A stretch of DNA of 64,000 nucleotides from contig LN717261.1 in the NCBI GenBank assembly GCA_001244265.2, positions 930,001 through 994,000 on the forward strand, in the 5' to 3' direction. Origin of the DNA: Microbotryum violaceum (Eukaryota). The notes below the pieces were generated by a model. The model worked only from the letters and a program-made list of their open reading frames with translations, did no database searches and was not told the DNA's origin. Each line of letters begins with the position of its first letter. Within the stretch, counting starts at the first letter, position 1. A program made the position numbers and the translations under genes. Of this stretch, positions 2,232 through 60,700 are shown one piece after another.

Positions 2232-4760
<2,529 letters not shown>

Positions 4761-7288: not shown

Positions 7289-7723
7289 TGTGAGATCAAA
7301 TATCTCCTTCATGTCCTTCATGTATCTTGTACCTACCTCAACATCCTCCTCTCTTCGTTTTGATCACTTTTGGCCTACTTTTCACCACCTTAGCTCTCCC
7401 ACTCTGGGCCTGGTCTCTGCACCTGGGCCAGGTCCGTGCGCCTGACTTTGGCTGGGCTGACTTGGGCCCAGCCAAATGGCCCCACTCTGGTTTCTCTCCT
7501 GCTCAAGCAACTTCTTGGTCTGGTCTCCCTTGGTCCTTCGATCAGAGACTTACCACCGCTTGAGCAGGTGATCACTACTCTTCCTATCATCTTTCACCCC
7601 TCTAGATGTGGTAACTTACTGTAGTGCTTGAGCAGGTGTGTAACAAGCAACTTCTTGGTCTGGTCTCCCTTGGTCCTTCGATCAGAGACTTACCACCGCT
7701 TGAGCAGGCGTGACATCATCACA
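7289..7723 (+). repeat. Family A LTR (TG...CA) shared by two tandem elements
   Basis: Preceded by PPT AGGGGGGG and followed directly by a PBS and gag. Confidence 0.92.
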
Positions 7724-9647: not shown

Positions 9648-16983
<7,336 letters not shown>

Positions 16984-17319
16984 TATTCGATCAACTCTAC
17001 TACGTCAGCGATGTAGTTATAGCCAAGAGTGATGAATAGGAAGCTAACAACAAGAGAGCCGCGCGCCTCACGTCCTCAGGCTGCGAACCTTGGGGCTGAG
17101 CCAATGGCCCAGGCTCGCCCTGTGTGCCTAAGTCCTGGGGCTGTGTGCGCCTGCCTCGCTCCGCGCGCCTAAGTCCTGAGCCAATGCGCCTTGCTTGTTC
17201 CGCGCGCCTAAGTCCTGGGCCGGTGCGCCAGGCAAGCGCGCGCCTAAGTCCTGGGCCGGTGCGCCAGGCTCGCTCTGCGCGCCTAAGTCCTGAGCCGAGC
17301 GGAGAGTGGATTCCTCACA
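16984..17319 (-). repeat. Family D 3' LTR (one terminal module), TG...TA
   Basis: Minus strand TGTGAGGAATCC...GATCGAATA; PPT at 17320-17329; RNase H tail at 17330-17458. Confidence 0.9.
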
Positions 17320-17458: not shown

Positions 17459-22570
<5,112 letters not shown>

Positions 22571-23119: not shown

Positions 23120-29287
<6,168 letters not shown>

Positions 29288-32200
29288 TCGGCAACCCGCG
29301 ATTGACGCTTGAGGACCAGGACACAGCGGAGCCGGCAATGTAGAAGACGAAACCCATGGTGAGACCGATGTGTCGACGCAGGCACCCAGTTGGCATCGGA
29401 GTAACCTACCACGCCCGTGATGTCCGTCTTACACGAGTGTAGAGAAGCTCGTCGCGATAAAGTGGCTCGGAGGTAGCGTAGGACGTGCTTGACGGCAATC
29501 CAATGGCGCTGACCCGGGTTGTTGGCGAAGCGGGCCAGGTAAGATACGGCGAAGGCGATGTCGGGGCGAGTGCCAAGCGAGATGTAGAGGAGCGAGCCGA
29601 TTGCCTGTAGATACCACGACCTGATCTGTTCCGTGCCTTGGCCCGGAATGGCGGTGAGCGAAAGACCGGGGGTCATCGGGATGGTAGCGCCGCGAGTCGT
29701 AGTGTCGAAGTGGAACCGAGCGAGCACGTCCATGATGTACCGTTCCTGGCATAGGGCGATAGAGCCGTCGTTGAGACGCCTGATCTGGATGCCGAGGATG
29801 TACTCGGCCGGTCCAAGGCGTTTGACACTGTAACGTTGTTCCAGGCCCGAGATGACGCGTTCGATTTCGGCCAGGTCCGGGCTGATCATCAGAAGGTCGT
29901 CGACGTACAGTGCGATGTAGTGTGGGCTTTGACGATTGTCGAGCCGAGAGTAGACGCAGTGATCGGTGCCCGTCGCCGTGTACCCGAGAGCACGAAGCGA
30001 AGCATCGATGTGTCGATTCCAGATGCGGCCGGCCTGTTTGAGCCCGTAGATGGAACGGCGCAGTCGAAGCACCTTGTCGCTGGGAAGGTCGAAGCCGCGT
30101 GGTGCCGTCATCCAGATGTCGTGATTGAGGTCGCCGTGAAGATAGGCTTTGTCAATGTCCGCTTGGTGTACATGCAGGCCGTTGGCAGCCGCGAGCGCGA
30201 GGAGTGAGCGTATCGAAGAGAAGCGGGCGACGGGTGCGAACGTCTCGTTGAAGTCAATGCCGTCCCGTTGCCGATTGCCCTGCGCTACCAAATGTGCCTT
30301 GTGGCCAGTGATTTCGCCAAGTGCGTTCCGTTTCGTTTTCCAGACGAACTTGGACGTGACGATGGTCGCGCCCATGGGTGCCGTAGAGCGGTCCTCGATG
30401 GTGAAAACCTTGAAGTCGTCGCGCATGGAATTGAACTCATCATCGGCGGCCTTGGCCCACACTTCACGTTTGTCGCTCGACATTGCCTCGCGCCAGGTCT
30501 GTGGGTCGCTTGTGATGGACTTGACTGGCTGGATGGCCTCAGCGTCAGAGGTGTCGTCGTCGGTCGCGATGAAAGCGCGGTGGTGTCGGGTGAGGAAATC
30601 GATTTCGTCCGGCGATTCGTCACGAGAGTGGCGCCCAATGAGGTCGAGTTTGTCGGGCGACTCCTCAGCCGATGCGGGCTCGCGGAACGTGCTGAAGTCG
30701 GGGCGGTGCACGTCTGGTGGGTTGAGGCGAACCTGGGGCTGTGAGCTGATGAGGTCGAGAGGATCGGCGGAATATTCAGAGTCGGTTGGCAAGGCCGAAG
30801 GTGACCACAATGCGGCCAAAGACGGTGAGGGCGCGGACGATGGTGCAGCCGACGGGGACGAGGCCGGTTCAGGAGACAGTGACGAGGACGGCGCAGGCGA
30901 CGGTGACGCGGGCGATTCGGCATCTGTGGGATTAAGTAAGGATCCGCCAGTGTACCCTGGGGCCACGTCAACGGCGCTCATGGAAGAATCATCAAGAGGG
31001 GATGAGACGTCCATGTGCGCCGACCTTACTAGTGGGGTCCATGATTCGACGGTGGTTTGAGGGTCGGCAAAGGGAGCGCTGGCGAAGTGCGTGTCATCGT
31101 CTGGCTCGGCGGAGTTGCCACATAAACCGGGGAATTCAGTGTCGAGGAAGGTGGCATTTCTGCCCAGGGTGACCTTCTTTGTTGTAGTGTCGTAGAAGCG
31201 GAAGGCTTTGGAAGCCAAGTCGTAGCCGGTGAACAGAACGCGAACCGCTTTCGGGTCGAGTTTAGAGCAAAGTTCGGGCGCGACCGTGAGCCAAGCCGCA
31301 CAGCCGAACGGGTGAAGCGCGGAGGCTGTGGTGCGTCCGCCTTGCCAGACCGAGGTCGGTGTTGCCTTGTCGAGAGCCGAGTGTTGAACCAGGTTCTTGC
31401 AGTAAACGAAGTAAGCCGCAGCCTCCTCCCAGAATGTCTTGGGTAGATGGGCGTCCGCCAGAAGGGCAAGAATACCTTCAACAATGGACCGATTGACCCG
31501 CTCCGCCCGACCGTTTTGTTGAGGCATGCGAGGGATAGAGTATTGTCGACGCGTACCTCGCACCTTGCAGAACTCCGTGAATGCTCTCGAGCAATACTCG
31601 CCACCATTGTCAGTTTGGAGGACCTTCAGTATTGCACCTGTCTCAAGCTCGACCTCGGCAAGCCAAGTCTTGAACACGCTGAAGACTTCGCTTTTATGTC
31701 CGATTGCGTAGGCCCACAGTTTGCGCGAGTAGTCGTCGAGGAACGTGACCAGGTATCGTTTGCCGGTCAAGGAACGCTCCGGGAGGGAAAGTACATCACT
31801 GTGTACGAGGCCGAGTCTCTCGGAGGAGTGCAAATCCGAATCGGGAAAAGGAAGACGATGGCCCTTGGCGCTGAGGCAAGCATTGCAGACAAACTTCTCT
31901 ACCTCTTCGTCACTATATCCGGCCCCGAGACCCTCCAGCAAACCAGCGGCAACCATCTTCTGTATGGACGACGGTGCGAGATGGCCGAGGCAGCGGTGGA
32001 GAGTCAGCAGGGGCACGGAAGACTGTGAACGAGAGAGGAGAGCAAGGTGCTGACATTTGGAATGATCAGCGTCGAGCAAGTCGAGTCCCTCGTTGAGCCT
32101 CGTGCCTTCAGCGATGTTGTTGCCGTCTTTGTCGATGTCAATGCATGTTTCGTGAAGGCAACACGGACGTCGTTGGTGTCGCAAAGTCGAGAGACCGAGA

Positions 32201-32473: not shown

Positions 32474-32959
32474 TATGAACCACACAACTGCTCAAGCGGT
32501 GGTGAGTCTCTGATCGACGGACCAGGGAGACCAGACCAATGAAGTTGCTTGGATTACACACCTGCTCAAGTGCTACAGTAAGTTACCATGGCTATGGAAG
32601 GGAGAGAGGAACTAGAAAGTGTAGTGCTCACCTGCTCAAGCGGTGGTGAGTCTCTGATCGACGGACCAGGGAGACCAGACCAATGAAGTTGCTTGAGCAG
32701 GAGAGTGAGAAGCGCGGAGCCAGTTGGCTGGGGCAAGTGCGCAACCAGGTCCGTGCCCCAGTGCCAAGCGCACGGACCCAGCCTAGAGGCAAGGGGAGCC
32801 AGGCAGAGAGTGACTAGGTCCGTGCACTTGATGCAGGTGCACAGACCAAGCCCAGTGATGATAGAGCAGGGTGAAGGACAGGCCAAAAATCACAGAGAGG
32901 ACAAGACAGAAAGAGGGAGATGATGTGAGAAGGAAGTACAGAGAGTTGTAACTCTCACA
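32474..32959 (-). repeat. Family C 3' LTR, long form (486 bp), TG...TA
   Basis: TGTGAGAGTTAC...GGTTCATA; PPT at 32960-32968. Confidence 0.9.
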
Positions 32960-36132: not shown

Positions 36133-36474
36133 TGTGAGAGTTACAACTCTCTGTACTTCCTTCTCACATCATCTCCCTCTTTCTGTCTTGTCCTCTCTGT
36201 GATTTTTGGCCTGTCCTTCACCCTGCTCTATCATCACTGGGCTTGGTCTGTGCACCTGCATCAAGTGCACGGACCTAGTCACTCTCTGCCTGGCTCCCCT
36301 TGCCTCTAGGCTGGGTCCGTGCGCTTGGCACTGGGGCACGGACCTGGTTGCGCACTTGCCCCAGCCAACTGGCTCCGCGCTTCTCACTCTCCTGCTCAAG
36401 CAACTTCATTGGTCTGGTCTCCCTGGTCCGTCGATCAGAGACTCACCACCGCTTGAGCAGTTGTGTGGTTCATA
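36133..36474 (+). repeat. Family C LTR, short form (342 bp), followed by PBS GGTTATAAGCC
   Basis: Same as 32474-32959 minus exactly 144 bp. Confidence 0.9.
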
Positions 36475-36588
36475 GGTTATAAGCCACAACAAGCTACCAG
36501 CGCGGTCACCTCCGTGCCCGCCCTCGTCGTTTTTTTTTTTTTCGCGCTTCGCACGACTCAGCCTCGCCCTGCACCCTGCACGCCTGGC

Positions 36589-37854
36589 ATGTCCGACGAC
36601 GCCAAGTCCTCAACGCTCGCGTCCCCCACCGCGCCCTCCCACACAGGTCGCAGCCTTCGCTGCTTCCGACCTTCTGCGCGACACCAACGGCTATCAAGAC
36701 TGGGTCCTGACGCTATGCTCCCGTCTGCCCTCCGACGTTATCGACTACCTTCAGTCTGGCGTCCCTTCGTCGTCCTGGCCGCCATCTTACGTTTCATTAT
36801 GGGATCACTACGCCCGCGCCTCGATCTGCGCCGCCGTCGACCCTCGGATGGTTCTTCCCGGCCTCTCGCAATACTTCGGCGACCCTCGCAGCGGTCACAA
36901 GATTTGGGTAGCTCTGCGCATGCGATATGGCGCTGTTTCGGCGGTCGATCTTCTCCCTGTCATCTCTCGACTCTTCAGTCCCAACCCTATGCCCGACACC
37001 GTCGACGAGTTCCTTCAGTTTCGCGACCGATTCGAGAACGACTCCCGCCTCCTCGACGACTCAAAGGTGACGACGGACTCCCTACTAGCGTCACACTTGC
37101 TCGCCCGGATGCCCTCCTCCCTCTCCGCCTGGCGCACTACGTTTGTCAATTCTCAGGGCACATCCCGTACACTGCCCCTGCCGCCGAGATCCTCGACCGT
37201 ATCTACCGCGAGATCAAGGCTCGTTCGGTCGACTCCCCCGTTGCCGCCACTACCACCTCTCAGCAACGCGTTCCCCATAGCCCTTGCCCCAACCCCTCTT
37301 GCCGAAAGATGCACTGGCTTCGGGACTGTCCCGACACCGCCTGGGCCGCCGCCTTCCGCGCCCGCAAGGCTGCCGCCGGAGCGACTTCGCGAAATCACAA
37401 GAAGGGTTCCCGCGCCGTCGCCTCTCCTGCCGTCACCTCCCCTGCCGTCGACGAGACGTCAGAACCCGCCACCTTCACAGCGTGCCTCCTCGCCACCCCG
37501 TCTTCCTTTCCTAAGTCGGCTTGGCTCCTCGACTCCGGCGCTAATCGCCACATGGCCAACGACAGCCAGCTCTTCTCCACCCTCCGGCCGTTCGCTGGCC
37601 CGCACGTTGCTGGAGTTGCCGGTTCTCTTCCGTCCACCGGTTGTGCCTCCGTCTGCCTCTCGACGTCAGCTGGCCCCGTTGTAGCGACCGACGTCCTCTT
37701 GGTACCTTCGCTCCCGTGCAACTTATTATCGGTCCGCCGTCTGGATCGACTCGGCTTCACCACCTCCTTCGGTTCCGGCCGCGCCACGATCCGCAACTCC
37801 TCAGGCACCGTCGTCGCCACGGCACAAGCAATCGCAAATGACCTATACGCGTTA
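36589..37854 (+). pseudogene. Family C gag-protease (inverted relative to its pol)
   Basis: MSDDAKSS start, CPNPSCRKMHWLRDC, WLLDSGANRHM; ends at target site CGTTA. Confidence 0.88.
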
Positions 37855-38141: not shown

Positions 38142-38483
38142 TATGAACCACACAACTGCTCAAGCGGTGGTGAGTCTCTGATCGACGGACCAGGGAGACC
38201 AGACCAATGAAGTTGCTTGAGCAGGAGAGTGAGAAGCGCGGAGCCAGTTGGCTGGGGCAAGTGCGCAACCAGGTCCGTGCCCCAGTGCCAAGCGCACGGA
38301 CCCAGCCTAGAGGCAAGGGGAGCCAGGCAGAGAGTGACTAGGTCCGTGCACTTGATGCAGGTGCACAGACCAAGCCCAGTGATGATAGAGCAGGGTGAAG
38401 GACAGGCCAAAAATCACAGAGAGGACAAGACAGAAAGAGGGAGATGATGTGAGAAGGAAGTACAGAGAGTTGTAACTCTCACA
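38142..38483 (-). repeat. Family C 5' LTR, short form (342 bp), with PBS and about 250 bp of leader/gag to 37888
   Basis: Reverse complement of 36133-36474. Confidence 0.9.
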
Positions 38484-39166
38484 GTGTTGCGAGTTGGCGG
38501 TTGAGTTCGCCGTGTCGGCCTTTTTGCCGTTCTCGAGAGCCTGTTTGCAGTCGAAAGACCCGTGATTCTGCTTGCAGGAGCGACAGGGTCCTGCGGCGGG
38601 TGTTTGGCTCTCACAGGGCACTCCGCCACACAGTGCGAAGGGCTGCGACAGGCGAGACACTTGGGACGGGTAGGACGTGACGACGACGAGGCAAGAAGGG
38701 CCGATTGGGTGCTGGAGACGTTGGTGGACCGGAGTTGAACACGCATGCGGTCGGCGAGCGAATCAATGACGGGGAGAGCTCGTTGAGTGCGCTGTTCATC
38801 GGTGAACGACGCCTTGAAACTCTCGAGGGACGGGTGAGCGATGGCGAGGAGGAGTGTGGCGAGAACATCGTTGATCGTGGTATTCGTATCGATGATTTCT
38901 TGCGCAATAGCTTTGAACTCCATGATCCAGCCGTCAAATTCGCCAACGGTGCCGGGCATGGGCCGGAAACTCCACAGTTGGGAGAAGAGCTCGAGCGTGC
39001 GAGTGGCGTCGTCAGGAGCATACCGCGATTTCAGCGTCGAGTACATTTTGGGCGCTGTGAGGTCAGCGGTAGGGATTGCGTCGAGGACTGCCGAGACTTC
39101 GGCCGAGTCGATCGAGTTTGCAAGAAGCTCACGTGCCACGACATCGCGGGCAGAGCGGTGCGAAGG
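38484..39166 (-). pseudogene. Family B gag fragment
   Basis: ORF 38414-39193 matches gag at 13932 onward. Confidence 0.85.
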
Positions 39167-39169
39167 TAC

Positions 39170-42100
39170 TGTGAGATCAAATATCTCCTTCATGTCCTTC
39201 TTGTATCTTGTACCTACCTCAACATCCTCCTCTCTTCGTTTTGATCACTTTTGGCCTACTTTTCACCACCTTAGCTCTCCCACTCTGGGCCTGGTCTCTG
39301 CACCTGGGCCAGGTCCGTGCGCCTGACTTTGGCTGGGCTGACTTGGGCCCAGCCAAATGGCCCCACTCTGGTTTCTCTCCTGCTCAAGCAACTTCTTGGT
39401 CTGGTCTCCCTCGGTCCTTCGATCAGAGACTTACCACCGCTTGAGCAGGTGAGCACTACTCTTCCTATCATCTTTCACCCCTCTAGATGTGGTAACTTAC
39501 TGTAGTGCTTGAGCAGGTGTGTAAAAAGCAACTTCTTGGTCTGGTCTCCCTCGGTCCTTCGATCAGAGACTTACCACCGCTTGAGCAGGTGTGCGTGACA
39601 ACGTCATAGGTTATTAGCCCAACCGAGCTACCAGTGCGGCCACCTCTGTGCCCGCCCTTCGCTCTATTTTTTCACCCTTCGCAACATGTCCGACGCCGGC
39701 GCCTCCGCGCCTGAAGCCAAGCTCCGCGAGCCCACGCCCGATGCGCCGCCCTTGCGCCCGCCCACCCACTCTGCGGCCTTCGCAACGACCGAGCTGCTTC
39801 GCAACTCGTCCGGCTACCGAGACTGGGTCCTCGCCATCCGTTCACGCCTGCCCTCCGGCGTCGTCCGTTACCTCAACACGGGCGTACCACTCGAGTCTTG
39901 GCCTGCTTCGTATGTCCCTCTCTGGGACCACTACGCCTGCTCCTCCATTTGCGCCTCCGTCGATTCGCAAACTGTCCTCCCGGGCCTGTCACCTTACCTC
40001 GACGAATCGCTCGCAGCACCCAAGGTCTGGCAGGCACTTCGCGAACGCTACGGCACCGTCTCTGCTGTCGATCTGCTACCGGTCATCCAACGCCTCTTCA
40101 GCTCCGACCCTGTGCCCGTCACTCCCGACCTGTTCCTGCAATTCCGCGGCAGTTTCGAAAACAACGCCCGGCTGCTGCAGGACTCGCAGGTCACCGTGAA
40201 CGCCCTTCTCGCCTCGCACTTGCTTGCTCGCCTTCCTTCGTCCTTCGACGCCTGGCGCACCACCTTCGTTGCTGACCAGGGCGATTCCACTGCGATGCCC
40301 TCCGCCACCGAGATCTTCACGCGCCTTTACCGCGATGTCAAAGCCCGCCCCGTCGATACTCCTGTTGCCGCCGTCGCCACCCGCAGGCCCGCCGCGGCTG
40401 TTCCAGGCCGTGCCCAAATCCGTCTTGTCGCAAGTTGCACTGGCTCCGGGAATGCCCCGACACCGCCTGGGCCGCCGCCTACCGAGCTTGTCGCACCGCC
40501 GAGAAGAAGGCCTCCCAGCCAGTCGCGTCACCAGCCGCAGTGGACACACCCAACTCTGTGTCGTTCACGGCCTGTCTCCTCGCAACACCTTCGCCATTTC
40601 GCAAATCGGCTTGGCTTCTTGACTCGGGCGCTAATCGCCATATGACGAACGACAGGGGCCTTTTTTCCGAGCTTCGCACGGTCGCAGGCCCACGAGTTGG
40701 AGGCGTCGCCGGCTCCCTCCCTTCCACCGGCTGTGGCACCATTTGCATCCAGACTTCAACGGGTCCCATCACTGTGTCCAATGTCCTCCTGGTACCGGAT
40801 CTCCCATGCAACCTGCTGTCCGTCTTCCAGTTGGATCAACTTGGCTACCGCGTCTCCTTCGCATCTCGTTGTGCAAGCATCGCCCGTCCCTCGGGTGCCG
40901 TTGTCGCTACCGCTCAAGCCATCGGAACAACCTGTACGCCTTGGCACTTGGACCTACACCCTGTACGCCCACAGCCCTCCTCGCCATCCCTACCAAAGTG
41001 TCCTTGCTGACTCTGCACCGTCGCCTCGCGCACTTGCCCGTTGCGCAAATCAAAAACGTTGTGCAGAAAGGCTTGGTTACTGGGGTGGATTGGGTGTATA
41101 AGGATCAGGAGCTCCGGGATTTTTACTGCAATGCTTGTCTCGCTTCCAAAGCGCATGCCCTCCCTTTGCCCGGTCCAAGTCCATTGCCTCTGGCCGCCTG
41201 GATCTCCTCCATGTCGATGTAGCGCAAATGCCTCGCCCTACATTTGGTGGACATCGGTACATGCTGGTCATCATTGATGACTTCTCACGCAAGCACTGGT
41301 GTCTCCTCCTGGCACTCAAAAGTGACGTCTTCCTCGCCTTCGCGACTGGATCCTTGAAGTCGAGAATGCCACCGGCACCAAGGTGAAGACCATCCGCTCT
41401 GACAATGGAGGCAAGTTCACTCTGCGCAACTTTGTCGACTTCTGTGCAAGCAAAGGCATTCGTCGGGAACTCACCATCCCTTACACTCCCAACAAAATGG
41501 GCGTGTCGAGCGCAGCAATCGCACCATCAAGGAGGGCATCCTTGCTCTGCTCTACTCCTCCGGCGCTGATTCACGCCTCTGGGGTGAGGCTGCCTTGTAC
41601 TACGTGCACTGCAAAAACCTGATGCCTCACGCCGGCATTGGTGGTGAAATCCCCGACACCCGTTGGCACGGCTTTGCGCCTGATATCTCCACCCTTCGCG
41701 CATTTGGCTGCCGCGCTTGGCACCACCTTCCCTCGGCCAAGCGCACGGACCTTGACCCCAAGGCTGTACCCCTCCTGTTCGTTGGTTTTGACCACCATGC
41801 CAAGGCTTTCCGACTCTTCGAGCCGTCCACGCGCAGGATACAACTCAGCCGCAATGTTGTCTTCCGTGAATCCGAGTTCCCTGCACTCCGGCCAGCCACC
41901 GACGTTCGCGCTGAACCAATCCCACTCCCCGTCACTGTTGACGCATACCCTGACCAGGTAGACCCCCTTGAGCCTTCGCTTGTTGCTTCCCCTCGCTCAC
42001 TCGCGCCTCACCCTGAGCCACCTCGACCCGTGCCGGCAGCCCCTGACCAGGGCCCGCACCGTCCCGCCCCTGCCTGCGAGGTCGCTGACCAGGACTCACT

Positions 42101-44807
42101 CGCACCCCCTGCCCCTGACCAAGGCTCCCCTGCTTGTGAGCTCCCTGACCCGGAATCACCTGCATCAAGCGCCTCTGACCAAGGTAGCTCTGACTCGGCC
42201 ATCTCCACGCCTTGTCCTTCCCGCGCCCCGTGGCCTCCCGTGCGTTGCCAGCGCCACCCTCACCCGCTCGGTCCGACTCCCCGGACCCGATCGATCTCCT
42301 GCCACGCCCACGCGATGTTGCTTTGCTATGCCAGGCGCAGGAGTTTCCCGACGACGTGGATGACGCACTCCACTCACCCTCTGCCGTGGCCTACCTTGCC
42401 TCTGGCGCTGCCGCCCTCATTGAGAGCTCGCCCGCCGACCCTGCGGAACTGATTGCCCCCGCTCGCGACCCACCTCACTGGCGAGCGGCCATGGCCACTC
42501 CTCAAGCGGATGAATGGCGTCTTGCGGCCCGCGACGAGTTTGACTCACTCTTGCGAGATTTTTCGGCGTTCACACGATTGACGAGTCCCTTGTCCCAGCA
42601 GACGCCAAAGTCCTGGCTCCCGCTTTGTCTTCCGCACCAAACGCGACCAGCATGGCCAAGTCAAGTCCTACAAGGGCCGTCTCGTTGCTCGTGGTGACTC
42701 CCAACGCTCTGGCATTGACTTTGACGAGACCTTTGCACCCGTGGCCAAATTCACCTCCATCCGCGCACTCCTGGCTCTTGCTGCTGCTCATGGGTACCAC
42801 GTCCACCAGGCCGACATCGACAAAGCCTACCTGCACGACAAACTCGACGCACCCCTGTACAATTGTGTGCCTGATGGCATCTACATGCCAGGCAAGGTCC
42901 TCCAACTGCATCGGTCCCTCTATGGTTTGCGCCAGGCCGGTCGCATCTGGATATTCGATCAACTCTACTACGTCAGCAATGTAGTTATAGCCAAGAGTGA
43001 TGAATCATTTCAACATACCTATTCGATCAACTCTACTACGTCAGCAATGTAGTTATAGCCAAGAGTGATGAATAGGAAGCTAACAGTGAATGAGCCGCGC
43101 GCCCCAATTTCTCAGCCAGTGAGCCTCAGGGCTGACCCAATAGGCCAGGCTCGTTCCGCGCGCCTAAGTCCGGAGCCATTTCGCCCGGCTCGCTCCGCGC
43201 GCCTAAGTCCCGACCTGATGCGCCCGGCTCGCTCCGCGCGCCTAAGTCCCGAGCCGAGGCGCCAGGCTCGCTCCGCGCGCATAGGTCCGTGCGCGATGCG
43301 CCCGGCTCGCTCCGCGCGCCTAAGTCCTGGACCGAGCGGAGAGTGCATTCCTCACACTGGAACGACGAGATTGACTCTGCCTTGTCCGCACTCGGCTACG
43401 TCGCCACCGAATCCGACCACTGCGTCTACGTCAGGACAACGGGTGATGTGCACCACTACATTGCGCTCTATGTCGACGACCTGCTCATGATCAGCCCCTC
43501 TCTCCCTGAGATTGAGCGTACCCTTCAGGGTCTTGAGCAGCGCTATGGTGTCAAACGGCTCGGTGAGGCAGAATACGTCCTCGGCATCCAGATCCGGCGC
43601 TCTCCAGACGGTTCCATCTCTCTGAGTCAGGAACAATACCTCAAGGACGTCCTTGCCCGATTTGGAATGTCCGATGCCCATCCCGTTGCCACGCCCATGC
43701 AGCCCGATCTCCGCCTCGAAGTCGAGCTGCAGCCCACCCCATTCCCGGATCGCACTCGGTACCTGCAGGCCATTGGTTCCCTTATGTACGCGTCCACTGG
43801 TACTCGGCCCGACCTGGCTTACACCGTCGGTTACTTGGCTCGCTTCTCTCACTCACCTTCCGCTGCTGCTTGGGGAGCTGTCAAACACGCCTTCCGTTAC
43901 CTCGCTGGCACTCTTTCTCACGGCTTACGCTACGCTCGTGGAATCCGGCACCGCTCTTGGGCTACTCCGACTGCAACTGGGGTGCATGCGTCCTCTCTTC
44001 CAAGTCGACCATGGGTTACACTTTCGTCTATGCAGGTGCTGCCGTCTCATGGTCCTCCCGGCTTCAATCGCGCGTTGCTGACTCCACTTGTGACGCCGAG
44101 TACCTCGCACTGTCACACGCTGGTAAGGAGGCAATCTTTCTGTGTCAGCTCTTTGGTGAGCTTGGCCTTTCGTCTTCAAAGCCCGTCCTCATCTACGGCA
44201 ACAACCAAGGCGCCAATGCTCTCACCAAGAATCCGGTATTTCATGCTCGGACTCGGCACATCCGCCTGCGCGAACACTTCGTCCGGATATGGTTTCCATG
44301 GGCGACATTGTCGTCCAGTACATCAACACTGGTGAGATGACAGCGGACATCTTCACCAAAGCATTGTCACGCGACCTCTTTGCTTGGCACCGCGGTCGAC
44401 TCGGTATCTGTGCTCCCTGATACTCGAAGTAGGGGGGGTGTGAGATCAAATATCTCCTTCATGTCCTTCTTGTATCTTGTACCTACCTCAACATCCTCCT
44501 CTCTTCGTTTGATCACTTTTGGCCTACTTTTCACCACCTTAGCTCTCCCACTCTGGGCCTGGTCTCTGCACCTGGGCCAGGTCCGTGCGCCTGACTTTGG
44601 CTGGGCTGACTTGGCCCAGCCAAATGGCCCCACTCTGGTTTCTCTCCTGCTCAAGCAACTTCTTGGTCTGGTCTCCCTCGGTCCTTCGATCAGAGACTTA
44701 CCACCGCTTGAGCAGGTGTGTAAAAAGCAACTTCTTGGTCTGGTCTCCCTCGGTCCTTCGATCAGAGACTTACCACCGCTTGAGCAGGTGTGCGTGACAA
44801 CATCACA
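39170..44807 (+). mobile_element. Full-length family A element (LTRs 39170-39608 and 44439-44807) carrying a solo D LTR
   Basis: Matching TSD GGTAC; PBS GGTTATTAGCCC at 39609-39620; gag ATG 39686; pol stop about 44420; PPT 44431-44438. Confidence 0.92.
42952..43356 (-). repeat. Solo family D LTR (two modules)
   Basis: Matching TSD CTGGA inside family A RT. Confidence 0.93.
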
Positions 44808-45393
44808 GGTACTTGCCACTCACGTGCTTGCCATGGTCCCATCATGCCTTGACAGCTTCCGACTCACGTTCACGGACGAGCAACGCAACCAACGCGACCT
44901 TCCCGAGCTGACGACGCTGACCGACCGCATTCGCGTCCAACTTCGTTCGGTGGGACTCTCCACCTCGCACTCGGCCATGCTTGCTACCGCCTCCCTCTGC
45001 CCCGCCTGCCGCCCCCGGTCACCGCCTTCGTGACTGCACCTCACGCGCTCAACACCCCCCACCGGCCCCTGCCGTCGCTGCCACAAGAAGGGTCACTGGC
45101 CCTCGACTGCAAACCGAGAGGCGACCAAAAACAAACCGGCGACGACAACCAGGACAACACACCCTCATCGGCGGCTCAACAACCAAATGTCGGCTATTTC
45201 GCCTCCTGCCTGCTCGCTCGCCGCCATCTCCCGACCGACGCCTTCGTCGTCGACTCGGGCGCCACGACACACATGGTCGCCGATCGCTCGCTGTTCACGG
45301 CTTATCGTCAGACGGCGCACACCAGGGTCGGCGGTATCGCAGGCGGCATCACGGCCATTTGCATGGGGGACGTGGCGTTCATTACCAAGACCG
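44808..45393 (+). pseudogene. Family D gag C-terminus/protease fragment
   Basis: [12 protein letters not shown]..., [11 protein letters not shown]; closest to 59940-60520. Confidence 0.82.
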
Positions 45394-45844
45394 TGTGACA
45401 AGTCCACTCTCAGCTCGGCAGAGGCGCCTCGGTCGTTGCGCGCACCCGCTAGCCCCCCCCCTGCGCTGGGGACTTAGACGCGCGCGACTGACTCAGCGCG
45501 CCAGCGCCGGTGGATCCGTGCGCGTGCCCACTAGGCCGCCCCCTTGCGGTGGGGACTTAGGCGCGCGCGAGTGCCTTAGCGCGCTAGCAACTTCACCCGC
45601 GACTGGGCCTATCTCAGCGCGGGCCCCCTTTCAGTTTCTTAGCTTCCCTCTCACCACTTCTGTTCAACAATGAACCTCTCCTGACAGTAGTGGTGATCGT
45701 CTCATAGGTATGCTGAAATAGACCACTTCTGTTCAACAATGAACCTCTCCTGACAGTAGTGGTGATTGTCTCATAGGTATGCTGAAATAGACCACTTCTG
45801 TTCAACAATCGACCTCTCCTGACAGTAGTGGTGATTGTCTCATA
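45394..45844 (+). repeat. Family B 5' LTR with three terminal modules, PBS at 45845-45856
   Basis: Module ACCACTTCTG...GTCTCATA x3 separated by GGTATGCTGAAATAG. Confidence 0.92.
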
Positions 45845-48800
45845 GGTTATTCGCCCATCGACCTACCGCTGGCATGGACACGTCGTCGCCCCTAACGACG
45901 GGTGCCCACCCAACAATCCCCGCCGAACAGCTCGCCGCACTTACGTCGCTGCTGTCGGGTCTCACCACTGCCACATCCGCCACGTCGTCCGGCACCTCTC
46001 GCCCGCGCCTTTCCCAAGCACGCACGCTTGGATGGGCCCAAGATGTTTGCGAGCTGGACACGCCAGCTTCGCCTCTGCCTCGCGGACGACATCCGCTCAT
46101 ACGTCCTCGACGGGATTGTGCCCGCCAACTGGACACCTTCGCACCGCTCTGCCCGCGATGTCGTGGCACGTGAGCTCCTAGCGAACTCGATCGACTCAGC
46201 TGACGTCTCGGCAGTCCTCGACCAAATCCCTACCGCCGACCTCACAGCGCCCAAAATGTACTCGACACTGAAATCGCGGTATGCTCCTGACGACGCCACT
46301 CGCACGCTCGAGCTCTTCTCCCGACTGTGGAGCTTCCGGCCCATGCCTGGCACCGTTGGCGAATTCAACGGCTGGATCATGGAGTTCAAAGCTATTGCGC
46401 AAGAAATCATCGATACGAAGACCACGATCAACGATGTTCTCGCCACACTCCTCCTCGCCATCGCTCACCCGTCCCTCGAGAGTTTCAAGGCGTCGTTCAC
46501 CGATGAACAGCGCACTCAACGATCTCTCCCTGCCATCGATTCGCTCGCCGACCGCATGCGTGTTCAACTCCGGTCCACCAACGTCCCCAGCACCCAATCG
46601 GCCCTTCTTGCCTCGTCGTCGTCACGTCCTACCCGTCCCAAGTGTCTCGCCTGTCGCAGCCCTTCGCACCGTGTGGCGGAGTGCCCTGTGAGAGCGACAC
46701 ACCCGCCGCCAGGACCCTGTCGCTCCTGCAAGCAGAATCACTGGTCTTTTGACTGCAAAAAGGCTCTCGGGAACAGCAAAAGGCCGACACGGCGAACTCG
46801 ACCGCCGACCCGCAACACCATGTGGGATGTATCGCCACCGGTCTTCTCGCTCGTCGCCGCCAGCTTTGCACCAACTCTTTTGTCGTTGACTCGGGGGCCA
46901 CCTCGCACATGGTCTCGGACAAGTCGCTGTTCACGACCTATCGCCACATCGCTCCCACAAAGATTGGAGGCATTGCAGGGGGCATCAACGCCATCGGAAC
47001 GGGAAACATCGCCTTCGTTGCCGCCTCGGGCCATCCGATCACGCTCACTGGCGTGCTGCACACTCCCGGCCTGTTCGTCAATCTCCTCTCGGTCTCTCGA
47101 CTTTGCGACTGTGAGGAATCCACTCTCCGCTCGGCTCAGGACTTAGGCGCGCGGAGCGAACCGGGCGCGGACTTAGGCGCGCGGAGCGAGCCGGGCGCCC
47201 CGGCCCAGGACTTAGGCGCACAGAGCGAGGCAGGGACTTAGGCGCGCGGAGCGAGCCTGGGCCATTGGCTCAGCCCCCAGGCTCGCTGGCTGTGGACTTG
47301 GCGCGCGCGGCTCTTTTGTTGTTAGCTTCCTATTCATCACTCTTGGCTATAACTACACCGCTGACGTAGTAGAGTTGATTGAATAGGTATGTTGAAATGG
47401 ATTCATCACTCTTGGCTATAACTACACCGCTGACGTAGTAGAGTTGATCGAATAGGTTATAAGCCCACGAGCTACCAGCCCCGCCGCTTGCGTTTTTTTC
47501 GCTCGAGCCCAGCCACTCGAGCCGCACACGTCCATCGCACCATCACATCATGGACAGCTCTCCCGCCTCGCCTTTGGCCCCAGGGATCCCAGCTCCCCTG
47601 AATCTTCGATCGGCGAACAAATCGCCACTCTACAGGCCCAGCTTGCCGCTCTGCAGGCCTTGCAACCCGCCGCCGCCGCCGCCGCCGCCGCCGCAACCCC
47701 GGCCGTCACCGCCGTGCCGGGAACGCCGCCACCGCATCCAAGGTCGTGTTTCCCAAGCACGCTCGTCTGGACGGCCCCAAGTCGTTCACCAACTGGTTGC
47801 GCCAACTCCGTCTTGCGCTTCCCAACCAGGTTCGCGGTTACGTTCTCGACGGTGTCATGCCCCCGACCTGGACCGCCGACCAGCTTGCCGCCCGTGACGA
47901 CGCCGCCCGGGAAATCATTGTTGGCTCGATCGACTCCGCCGACGTATCGGCCACCCTCGACGCCATCCCCAGCGACGACCTGTCGGCACCGCGCATCTTT
48001 GCCGCTCTCAAGGCTCGTTTTGCACCGGACGACGCTACACGCACTCTCGAGTTGTTCGCTCGCCTTTGGGACTTCAGGAAGATGCCTGCCTCCGTCGAGG
48101 CCTACGACACTTGGCTACGCGAGTACATGTCGATTGCTCAGGAAATACGCGACGCCAAAACATCGCTCAACGACGTGCTCGCCACCCACGTGCTCGCCAT
48201 GGTCCCGTCTTGCCTCGACAGCTTCCGACTCACGTTCACGGACGAGCAGCGAAACCGACGCGACCTTCCCGAACTCACGACGCTTACGGACCGCATTCGC
48301 ATCCAGCTTCGTTCGGCAGGACTCTCGCCCTCGCATTCGACCATGCTTGCCACCAGCTCCCCTGCCCCGCCTGCCGCGCTCCCGGTCACCGCCTGCGCGA
48401 CTGCACTTCACGTGCGAAGCACCCGCCCACCGGCCCCTTCCGCCGATGCCACAAGACAGGTCACTGGACACTTGACTGCAAGAACCGGGGTGAACAGGCA
48501 CGTCGCAGCGACGACACTCAGGACGACACGTCTTCCTCCGCGGCTTTGCAACCGAACGTCGGCTATTTCGCCTCCTGCCTGTTCGCTCGTCGCCAACTCC
48601 CGACTGACGCCTTTGTAGTCGATTCGGGCGCCACGACACACATGGTCGCCGACCGATCTATGTTCACGACTTATCGTCAGACGGCACACACCAAGATCGG
48701 CGGCATCGCGGGTGGCATCACGGCTATCGGCATGGGGGACGTGGCATTCGTCGCCAAGACTGGACACCCGATCACACTCCGTGGTGTTCTCCACACGCCT

Positions 48801-50186: not shown

Positions 50187-55567
<5,381 letters not shown>

Positions 55568-57514: not shown

Positions 57515-58237
57515 TAGCGGACTCCACCACTGATGCCGAGTACCTGGCCTTGTCGCACGCGGGTAAGGAAGCGATCTACCTTACCCAACTCCTCTCCGAG
57601 CTCCACGTTTCACCAATCGCTGCAGCTCACATCTTCACCGACAACGAAGCCGCGGCCGCCGTCGCTCACGACCCCGTTCGCACCTCCGGCACCCGGCACA
57701 TTCGCCTCCGCGAACATTTTGTCCGTGACATGGTCAATCGAGGTGACATCTCTCTCTCACACGTTGGCACAGCGGACATGGTTGCGGACGTATTCACCAA
57801 AGCGCTAGGCCCCAAGATTTTTGGTACACATTGCTTTGCTCTAGGCCTCCGGACGCGACATCCACGGCTCAAGTCTACCTCGCGTTCGCGTGGGGGGGGG
57901 TGTGAGGAATCCACTCTCCGCTCGGCTCAGGACTTAGGCGCGCGGAGCGAACCGGGCGTGGACTTAGGCGCGCGGAGCGTGCCGGGCGCCCCGGCCCAGG
58001 ACTTAGGCGCACAGAGCGAGGCAGGGACTTAGGCGCGCGGAGCGAGCCTGGGCCATTGGCTCAGCCCCCAGGCTCGCTGGCTGTGGACTTGGCGCGCGCG
58101 GCTCTTTTGTTGTTAGCTTCCTATTCATCACTCTTGGCTATAACTACACCGCTGACGTAGTAGAGTTGATCGAATAGGTATGTTGAAATGATTCATCACT
58201 CTTGGCTATAACTACACCGCTGACATAGTAGAGTTGA

Positions 58238-58656
<419 letters not shown>

Positions 58657-60609: not shown

Positions 60610-60700
60610 TATTCGATCAACTCTACTACGTCAGCGGTGTAGTTATAGCCAAGAGTGATAAATCCATTTCAACATACCTATTTGATCAAGTCTACTACGT
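60610..60700 (-). repeat. 3' tip of a family D LTR joined to RNase H by a deletion
   Basis: One full module, spacer and partial module; junction at ACGTC microhomology. Confidence 0.82.

Follow-up and report, generated by a model that had tools for sequence, protein, structure and literature searches.

Nested Ty1/copia long terminal repeat (LTR) retrotransposons lie across the 64-kb window analysed here, a stretch of 64,000 nucleotides of Microbotryum violaceum DNA (assembly GCA_001244265.2, contig LN717261.1, positions 930,001 to 994,000, forward strand) with a G+C content of 59%; all coordinates below are positions in this window. The assignment to Ty1/copia follows from the gene order, from the signals that flank the LTRs and from the target-site duplications (TSDs). 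An open reading frame (ORF) of 993 amino acids at 29203-32184(-) carries an rve domain at residues 125-221 and then RVT_2 at residues 602-838, i.e. integrase upstream of reverse transcriptase (RT), and the closest named relatives of this Pol ORF are the Gag-Pol proteins of Microbotryum saponariae, M. silenes-dioicae and M. intermedium. A polypurine tract, GGGGGGGGG abutting TGTGAGG, precedes the 3' LTRs, and a primer-binding site (PBS) follows the 5' LTRs; all LTRs end in TA or CA and all PBSs begin with GGTTAT. TSDs of 5 bp verify four elements, which we call D1 (GCGAC), D2 (TCCGA), A (GGTAC) and A' (AACAC), and a further one flanks a solo D LTR (TCCAG). These duplications fix the LTR ends of D1, D2 and the solo D LTR.

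Four families in the window (A, A', B and D) share an LTR-terminal design, in which a short module next to the PBS is present once or in tandem with a spacer between the copies. A preliminary description of this DNA had recognised the arrangement in families D and B and had read it as an intron that is spliced from the RNA 5' end and restored during reverse transcription. Here, we found that the module structure is real and more general than first described. The features of family D are as follows.

47110-47454 (+): 5' LTR of D1 (TGTGAGG...GAATA), two modules; 98.3% identical to 57901-58245; TSD GCGAC at 47105-47109 and 58245-58249.
47333-47386 (+): module 1 of D1, 54 nt, ending in GAATAG; 53/54 identical to module 2.
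47387-47401 (+): spacer of D1, GTATGTTGAAATGGA, with a donor-like hexamer and an upstream ATG; 13/15 identical to the B spacer.
47402-47454 (+): module 2 of D1.
47387-47455 (+): 69-nt repeat unit and candidate intron, consisting of the spacer, module 2 and the first G of the PBS.
47455-47479 (+): PBS, starting GGTTATAAGCCC, complementary to the stretch of initiator tRNA-Met from the D-loop to the anticodon loop.
57901-58244 (+): 3' LTR of D1, two modules; spacer shorter by one base (GAAATGATT).
55164-55567 (-): 5' LTR of D2, two modules, PBS from 55163; TSD TCCGA.
50187-50590 (-): 3' LTR of D2, two modules, then T (no AG); TSD TCCGA.
42952-43356 (-): solo D LTR, two modules; TSD TCCAG.
16984-17319 (-): 3' LTR of D type, single module, preceded by a polypurine tract.
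60610-60700 (-): D3 fragment, in which comparison with D1 and D2 shows the 3' end of pol fused to the end of module 1, followed by the spacer and module 2.

Re-reading of the sequence confirmed what had been claimed for the letters of the D1 unit: 47387-47455 is 69 nt long, begins with GTATGT, contains GCTGAC and ends in TAG, whose final G is the first base of the PBS. Two modules are present in 5 of the 6 complete D LTRs of the window and one in the sixth, and the D3 fragment adds a further spacer with module 2. The deletion in D3 lies between 9-nt near-repeats, of which GCGGACGTA belongs to pol and GCTGACGTA to module 1, and removed the C-terminus of pol, the polypurine tract, U3 and most of module 1.

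In family B the modules have a different sequence and the shared 69-nt design, GTATGC...CCTGAC...CATAG, was found again on re-reading at all three places given for it (45708-45776, 45777-45845 and 24371-24439).

45394-45844 (+): 5' LTR of B, three modules; units 45708-45776 and 45777-45845; PBS from 45845.
24040-24438 (+): B LTR, two modules; unit 24371-24439, the final G of which is flanking DNA.
13672-13902 (+): 5' LTR of B, single module abutting the PBS at 13903.
29287-29057 (-) and 22570-22202 (-): B LTRs, single module abutting the PBS at 29056(-) and 22201(-), respectively.
22237-22358 (-): 60-nt tandem duplication within a B LTR, out of the GT..AG register, covering the U3 end and the module's first 25 nt; period 60 with 98% matches in Tandem Repeats Finder (TRF).

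Single-module forms predominate in this family: 8 of the 10 B LTRs in the window have one module, one has two and one has three, and three of the one-module copies are 5' LTRs that carry a PBS.

Families A and A' show a longer layout. A 64-nt module ending in GCTTGAGCAG is followed by a segment X of 68-70 nt, by GTGTGTAA and a second module, by a tail of 14-20 nt and then by the PBS. X begins with GTGAGC in 4 of 6 copies and with GTGATC in the other 2, its end reads TAACTTACTGTAG and then CTTGAGCAG, and TRF treats it as a diverged copy of the repeat unit.

39170-39608 (+): 5' LTR of the A element: module, X (39449-39516), spacer and module (39517-39588), 20-nt tail; TSD GGTAC at 39165-39169 and 44808-44812.
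44439-44807 (+): 3' LTR of the same A element: module, spacer and module, tail, without X.
38142-38483 (-): 5' LTR of the A' element, single module; TSD AACAC at 38488-38484 and 32473-32469.
32474-32959 (-): 3' LTR of the same A' element: module, X (32631-32562), spacer and module (32561-32488), 14-nt tail.

Within the window, A LTRs read module-X-module in three cases, module-X-module-module in one (the LTR at 4258, with one extra unit) and module-module in one, and A' LTRs have one module in two cases and module-X-module in two.

The module itself appears to be a constrained structure of the R/U5 region, whatever its other roles. In D1, the last U3 bases (CCUA) and module 1 (47329-47387, +) are predicted to fold into a hairpin with a minimum free energy of -17.9 kcal/mol (z -2.93), and none of 200 shuffled sequences was as stable. 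Module 1 folded with the U3 end gave z -1.88 (13/200 shuffles as good) and z -2.74 (1/200) in B, z -5.17 (0/200) in A and z -4.31 (0/200) in A', while module 2 of D, folded with its own flanks, did not exceed shuffles (z -0.02, 91/200 as good). The stem sequences vary among the families; one stem pair, in an alignment read by eye, is U-A in D, U-G in the copy B9606 and C-G in the remaining B copies. Between A and A', the modules agree at 61/66 and 68/75 positions and U3 at 162/273. A search of Rfam yielded only a match to a snoRNA below threshold (E 0.63).

How does the number of units change? Whole units distinguish the 5' from the 3' LTR in 2 of the 4 elements verified by TSDs. The A element has module-X-module in its 5' LTR and module-module in its 3' LTR, and the A' element has one module in the 5' LTR and module-X-module in the 3' LTR, the remaining LTR sequence being 99.7-100% identical. 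In the standard scheme of reverse transcription, a single minus-strand U3-R-U5 serves as template for the 5' and the 3' LTR of an insertion. Because of this single source, splicing of the genomic RNA cannot make the two LTRs of one insertion differ, and the DNA forms with different unit numbers are thus no evidence for splicing. Slippage during plus-strand synthesis or a later deletion can produce such pairs. The proposal that one-module DNA forms derive from spliced RNA is therefore not borne out here. It had also been argued that removal of a unit recreates exactly module and PBS; this is true of the sequence, but does not speak for splicing, since any tandem repeat behaves in the same way in every register.

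Modules within one LTR are near-identical (53/54 in D1; 53/55 and 52/54 in B), while D and B modules agree at only 36/61 positions, and lineage-specific changes are found in both modules: ACATTG stands in both modules of three LTRs of the D2 lineage, where D1 has ACACCG. This pattern indicates concerted evolution, as is expected from recurrent gain and loss of units. Similar instability shows in the 60-nt duplication of a B LTR (22237-22358), whose register is not GT..AG, in the extra unit of the A LTR at 4258, in the deletion of the D3 fragment and in the 39-nt repeats of U3, which TRF finds in 2-5 copies.

Based on these observations, we favour, with a probability of roughly 0.5, the explanation that the units are tandem repeats of an R/U5 hairpin, that template switching alters the number of copies and keeps them alike, and that the spacer is under constraint. 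The LTRs end in a module of 54-64 nt, which is predicted to fold with the last bases of U3 into a hairpin; the module adjoins the PBS directly in B and D, lies 14-20 nt upstream of it in A and A', and is carried in one to three tandem copies with a short spacer between them. Units may be made, lost and homogenised when the RT, in the course of strong-stop synthesis or of strand transfer, switches template from one direct repeat to another.

Several observations weigh against this explanation, and most of them concern the spacer. Between B and D, the spacer agrees at 13/15 positions and the PBS at 21/26, while the modules (36/61) and the U3 end (41/69) are both at about 59%; with flanks so diverged, slippage alone is insufficient to account for the spacer. 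Every spacer opens with a donor-like hexamer, namely GTATGT in 6/6 D copies, GTATGC in 3/3 B copies and GTGTGT in 8/8 copies of A and A', and the donor-like GTGAGC opens 4 of the 6 X segments. X, compared between A and A', has an intron-like pattern in which the ends are conserved (first 11/11, last 27/29) and the middle is variable (56/72 overall). The unit length of 68-73 nt fits introns of basidiomycetes, as represented by Cryptococcus. Upstream ATGs occur in the spacer and in X, and none is found in the D module or in the D1 leader up to gag. Two modules are retained by 5/6 complete D LTRs. Finally, in a tree of B U3 sequences the copies with two and three modules are not sisters and are placed among one-module copies, with supports of only 0.77-0.78; since a lost spacer cannot be remade, the multi-module elements may be the propagating lineage.

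The combination of intron-like signals was assessed against shuffled sequences. GTRNGY served as the donor consensus; our literature search gave no splice consensus for Pucciniomycotina. We counted, in 20000 shuffles per unit, the cases in which some circular register had AG/GTRNGY together with CTRAY 8-45 nt upstream of the AG. This occurred in 58/20000 shuffles of the D unit and 47/20000 of the B unit, so that the intron-like look of a single unit exceeds chance, again at odds with a plain slippage product. Part of this look is automatic: an LTR end in TA or CA and a PBS start in GG give YAG/G at the LTR end in any case, and AG/GT at the joint of module and spacer arises because the same TA/GGT is repeated there, the GT copying the GGT that opens the PBS. 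The preliminary description had made its case depend on donor and branch motifs being kept in related families, and both donor-like and branch-like motifs do recur in all four.

The 15-nt spacer is under real constraint and must have a function in the RNA leader, for which a 5' splice site or U1 site is one candidate and a three-codon upstream ORF (uORF) of the form ATG-YTG-AAA-stop another. Conservation covers all 15 bases and thus more than a donor needs, and the spacer is the sole A+T-rich stretch of a G+C-rich LTR end. No long-range partner was found for it, in that no complement of at least 9 nt exists outside the spacers themselves. One candidate partner, AGGTATGCTGAA at about position 1300, was rejected; it sits in coding sequence. 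An origin of spacer and module from the LTR 5' end, as at an LTR-LTR junction, was also rejected, the local alignments being no better than those of shuffled sequences (489, 773, 347 and 837 of 2000).

Splicing of the unit is plausible but tentative. The strongest alternative is an ordinary retained leader intron, which we regard as possible although doubtful. Here the unit, or X in A and A', would be spliced from some transcripts, would aid mRNA accumulation, export or translation and would remove upstream ATGs; the unspliced RNA would be reverse transcribed, and one-module copies would come from spliced templates and slippage. The donor-like hexamer at the start of every spacer, the shuffle results (58 and 47 of 20000) and the spacer conservation of 13/15 all point in this direction, as does the confinement of upstream ATGs to the spacer and X. 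X has, besides its conserved ends, a variable middle rich in pyrimidine, as would suit an intron. All D and B modules seen contain CTGAC, 21-23 nt ahead of the terminal AG, and the branch-like motifs of A and A' are of the YTNAY type (ACTTAC, ACTCAC and TAACTTAC). Intron removal strongly cuts mRNA accumulation in Cryptococcus, according to PMC3744415 and PMC5851062, the latter of which gives a mean intron length of 65 nt. Penelope, as described in PMC2377424, retains a 75-bp intron 46 bp past the start site, the deletion of which abolishes reporter expression.

Other details fit an intron poorly. In D, the A of CTGAC is followed by three other AGs (+4/5, +7/8 and +9/10) before the proposed AG (+21/22) is reached, and in B two (+2/3 and +5/6) precede the proposed acceptor. 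As a rule, the first usable AG after the branch serves as acceptor, so that the proposed one is not the obvious choice. A pyrimidine tract ahead of the acceptor is missing in both D and B, the conserved stretch takes in all 15 nt of the spacer, and 2 of the 6 X copies begin with GTGATC and lack the G at +5. The unit is absent from 8/10 B LTRs, three of them 5' LTRs with a PBS, and LTR pairs of one insertion differ by units. Two A LTRs have CAG/GTGTGC after the last module, merely 20 nt from the LTR end, where no intron would have room. Logan contigs matching 44400-48400 (three sets guessed to be RNA and one DNA) were short and uninformative on splicing, with no 69-nt skip in the B and D LTRs and no transcript starts or ends; one contig (X16) skips 47262-47400, but with 15 mismatches and with the intervening letters unknown it is uninterpretable.

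A role of the spacer other than in splicing, with GT..AG as an incidental look, is unlikely. It might serve as a poly(A) or 3'-end signal or as a minimal uORF that tunes Gag translation. Its isolated A+T-richness is in favour of such a role, and so is the reading frame: the spacer is ATG-TTG-AAA-TGA in 4/6 D copies (e.g. 47389-47400) and ATG-CTG-AAA-TAG in 3/3 B copies (45710-45721), i.e. Met-Leu-Lys-stop in 7/9 copies, and the two B/D differences are a synonymous Leu change and a change from stop to stop. Conservation beyond the donor hexamer would also find an explanation here. The synonymous pattern is, however, based on two substitutions, 2/6 D copies read through to a 10-codon ORF, and the spacers of A and A' (GTGTGTAA) contain no ATG. 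An essential poly(A) signal is contradicted by the one-module LTRs, which do without the spacer.

Least probable is the self-regenerating intron itself, in which R is the tandem exon-like hairpin. The 5' copy in the RNA would be spliced from the end of module 1 to the TA/G at the LTR end and PBS, with a predicted junction of module-1 AATAG joined to GTTATNAGCCC. Strong-stop DNA made on the remaining module would anneal to module 2 at the RNA 3' end, and its extension would rebuild the spacer and module 1, so that mis-registered jumps would lead to one or three modules. All evidence for an ordinary intron applies to this model too. The layout of module, GT-spacer and module is common to four families, and near-identical modules are predicted, since both progeny modules would descend from the parental module 1; slippage from two to three and back to two modules explains this homogeneity equally well. 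The accompanying claim that the 3' LTR copy usually lacks the acceptor stands in part: 3 of the 5 multi-module LTR ends without a PBS are followed by C or T (60610, 50186, 42951) and have no AG, but the other 2 are followed by G (58245, 24439). The model requires a transcription start precisely on the base with which the repeat opens (47333 in D1), yet the predicted hairpin uses the four bases CCUA upstream of it, a mild argument for an earlier start, and starts upstream of 47333, e.g. in TTAGCTTCC, would not fit. It further needs a poly(A) site beyond module 2, i.e. essentially no U5. It cannot yield the LTR pairs that differ by units in 2/4 verified elements, is superfluous if unspliced RNA is the template and is unnecessary for any DNA form seen; we consider it very unlikely.

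Are comparable arrangements known elsewhere? Our literature search, judged from listings and abstract openings, turned up neither an LTR-terminal tandem intron nor the Microbotryum LTR modules described here; such LTRs might be contained in the repeat libraries of PMC4469406. Ty5 and Drosophila copia share with the present elements the PBS that opens with GGTTAT and can pair with the D arm and anticodon loop of initiator tRNA-Met, the 5-bp TSD and an integrase ahead of RVT_2. Here, in contrast, the LTRs are TG...TA in B, D and A', and one to three tandem hairpin modules with a conserved donor-like spacer lie beside the PBS. In retroviruses, a structured R/U5 start aids strand transfer, and the 5' splice site can sit in the LTR upstream of the PBS. 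Human immunodeficiency virus 1 has the TAR and poly(A) hairpins in R, and the major splice donors of human T-lymphotropic virus 1 and of foamy viruses lie inside R. In those retroviruses the acceptor is far downstream, the genomic RNA is unspliced and a tandem R hairpin is not known.

Penelope-like elements resemble the candidate in that their short 75-bp intron, 46 bp past the start in a repeated promoter region, is kept through retrotransposition and needed for reporter expression. They differ in their non-LTR mechanism and in that splicing was shown by reverse transcription PCR, the candidate here being drawn from sequence; tandem exon-like modules are not reported in the excerpt of PMC2377424 covering these elements. 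In Ty1, the lariat model of Cheng and Menees (2004) also tied splicing-type RNA chemistry near R to minus-strand transfer. In that model, the branch joins the RNA 5' end to the U3/R border, and no short unit is excised. Dbr1 is required for Ty1 and Ty3 cDNA, and the lariat model is disputed (PMC5399748). Cryptococcus offers a parallel in the same phylum through SCANR (Dumesic 2013), where transposon RNAs with introns have their fate decided by splicing efficiency and poor introns feed RNA interference (RNAi), although the relevant extracts of PMC5851062 do not describe these introns as LTR-terminal tandem units.

The interest of the locus centres on the spacer, which is as conserved as the tRNA-constrained PBS and donor-like in four families. 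Should the unit be spliced, it would be a leader intron inside an LTR, and the phylum is one in which mRNA accumulation can be governed by introns and poor transposon introns can trigger RNAi. If the tandem-R model were true, splicing would give an LTR retrotransposon intron-dependent expression while the intron is inherited via a spliced template, and splice-like signals beside R could bear on the disputed link between Dbr1 and minus-strand transfer. If the units are merely R/U5 hairpin repeats made by slippage, they represent neat but ordinary LTR repeat dynamics in copia elements primed by a half-tRNA.

The PBS appears, from its complementarity, to be of this half-tRNA (anticodon-loop) type, pairing with a stretch inside initiator tRNA-Met whose end lies immediately 3' of the anticodon loop. 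A pattern derived from the PBS matched 119 metagenome stretches, all of which, by their printed contexts, continue as a tRNA gene except one (L022). Of the 12 metagenome loci checked with ARAGORN, 11 carry a tRNA-Met(CAT) on the other strand, these being metagenome tRNAs and not the fungus's own, and in one locus (L001) the match spans tRNA positions 17-41. The exception, L022:200-224(-), is a tRNA-like match without the remainder of a tRNA gene and without an ARAGORN tRNA, and may be an interrupted tRNA-Met gene. The metagenome scan with the PBS pattern found no fungal relatives. Priming at the anticodon loop of initiator tRNA-Met together with 5-bp duplications is described for Ty5, Drosophila copia and fungal Copia families in PMC10886601.

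Two details of the PBS stand apart. Its seventh base (47461, 55157(-), 7730, 39615 and 13909-13910) is A in D1, C in D2, G and T in two A copies and TC in B, in copies that are otherwise near-identical; it faces the first anticodon base of tRNA-Met, where G alone fits. In D (47455-47488), complementarity to the tRNA seemingly extends beyond the D arm, up to GCTACCAGCCCCGCCGCT, and perhaps over the whole 5' half, as judged by eye against bacterial tRNA genes only.

Two general scans added little: viral contigs searched with Pol gave no relatives, and a promoter and terminator scan, which uses bacterial models of no relevance to the fungus, found nothing.

Further observations concern sequence changes and rearrangements in the elements. 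Near the module ends, GATCG or GATTG is found (47379, 45697, 45766), and one of the modules in an LTR frequently has TTG at the TCG site. We take TCG-to-TTG to be the target motif of hypermutation, which these module-end changes would fit. Hypermutation is mentioned for Microbotryum repeats in PMC4469406. The U3 region of D contains a 39-nt tandem unit in 2.6-4.9 copies with the core GGACTTAGGCGCGCGGAGCGAGCC (17109-17297, 43137-43327, 50371-50561 and 55357-55538), and related motifs occur in the U3 of B. LTR ends are TG...TA in B, D, A' and one A copy (47454, 45844, 38142, 39608) and TG...CA in other A copies (7723, 44807); the two LTRs of the A element at 39170-44807 themselves differ in this terminal base (TA and CA). 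The A LTR at 7289-7723, with a polypurine tract before it and a PBS after it, is apparently common to two tandem elements. The A' element, lastly, holds an inverted duplication of its 5' LTR, leader and gag start, in which 36133-36725 is 99.5% identical to 38483-37888.

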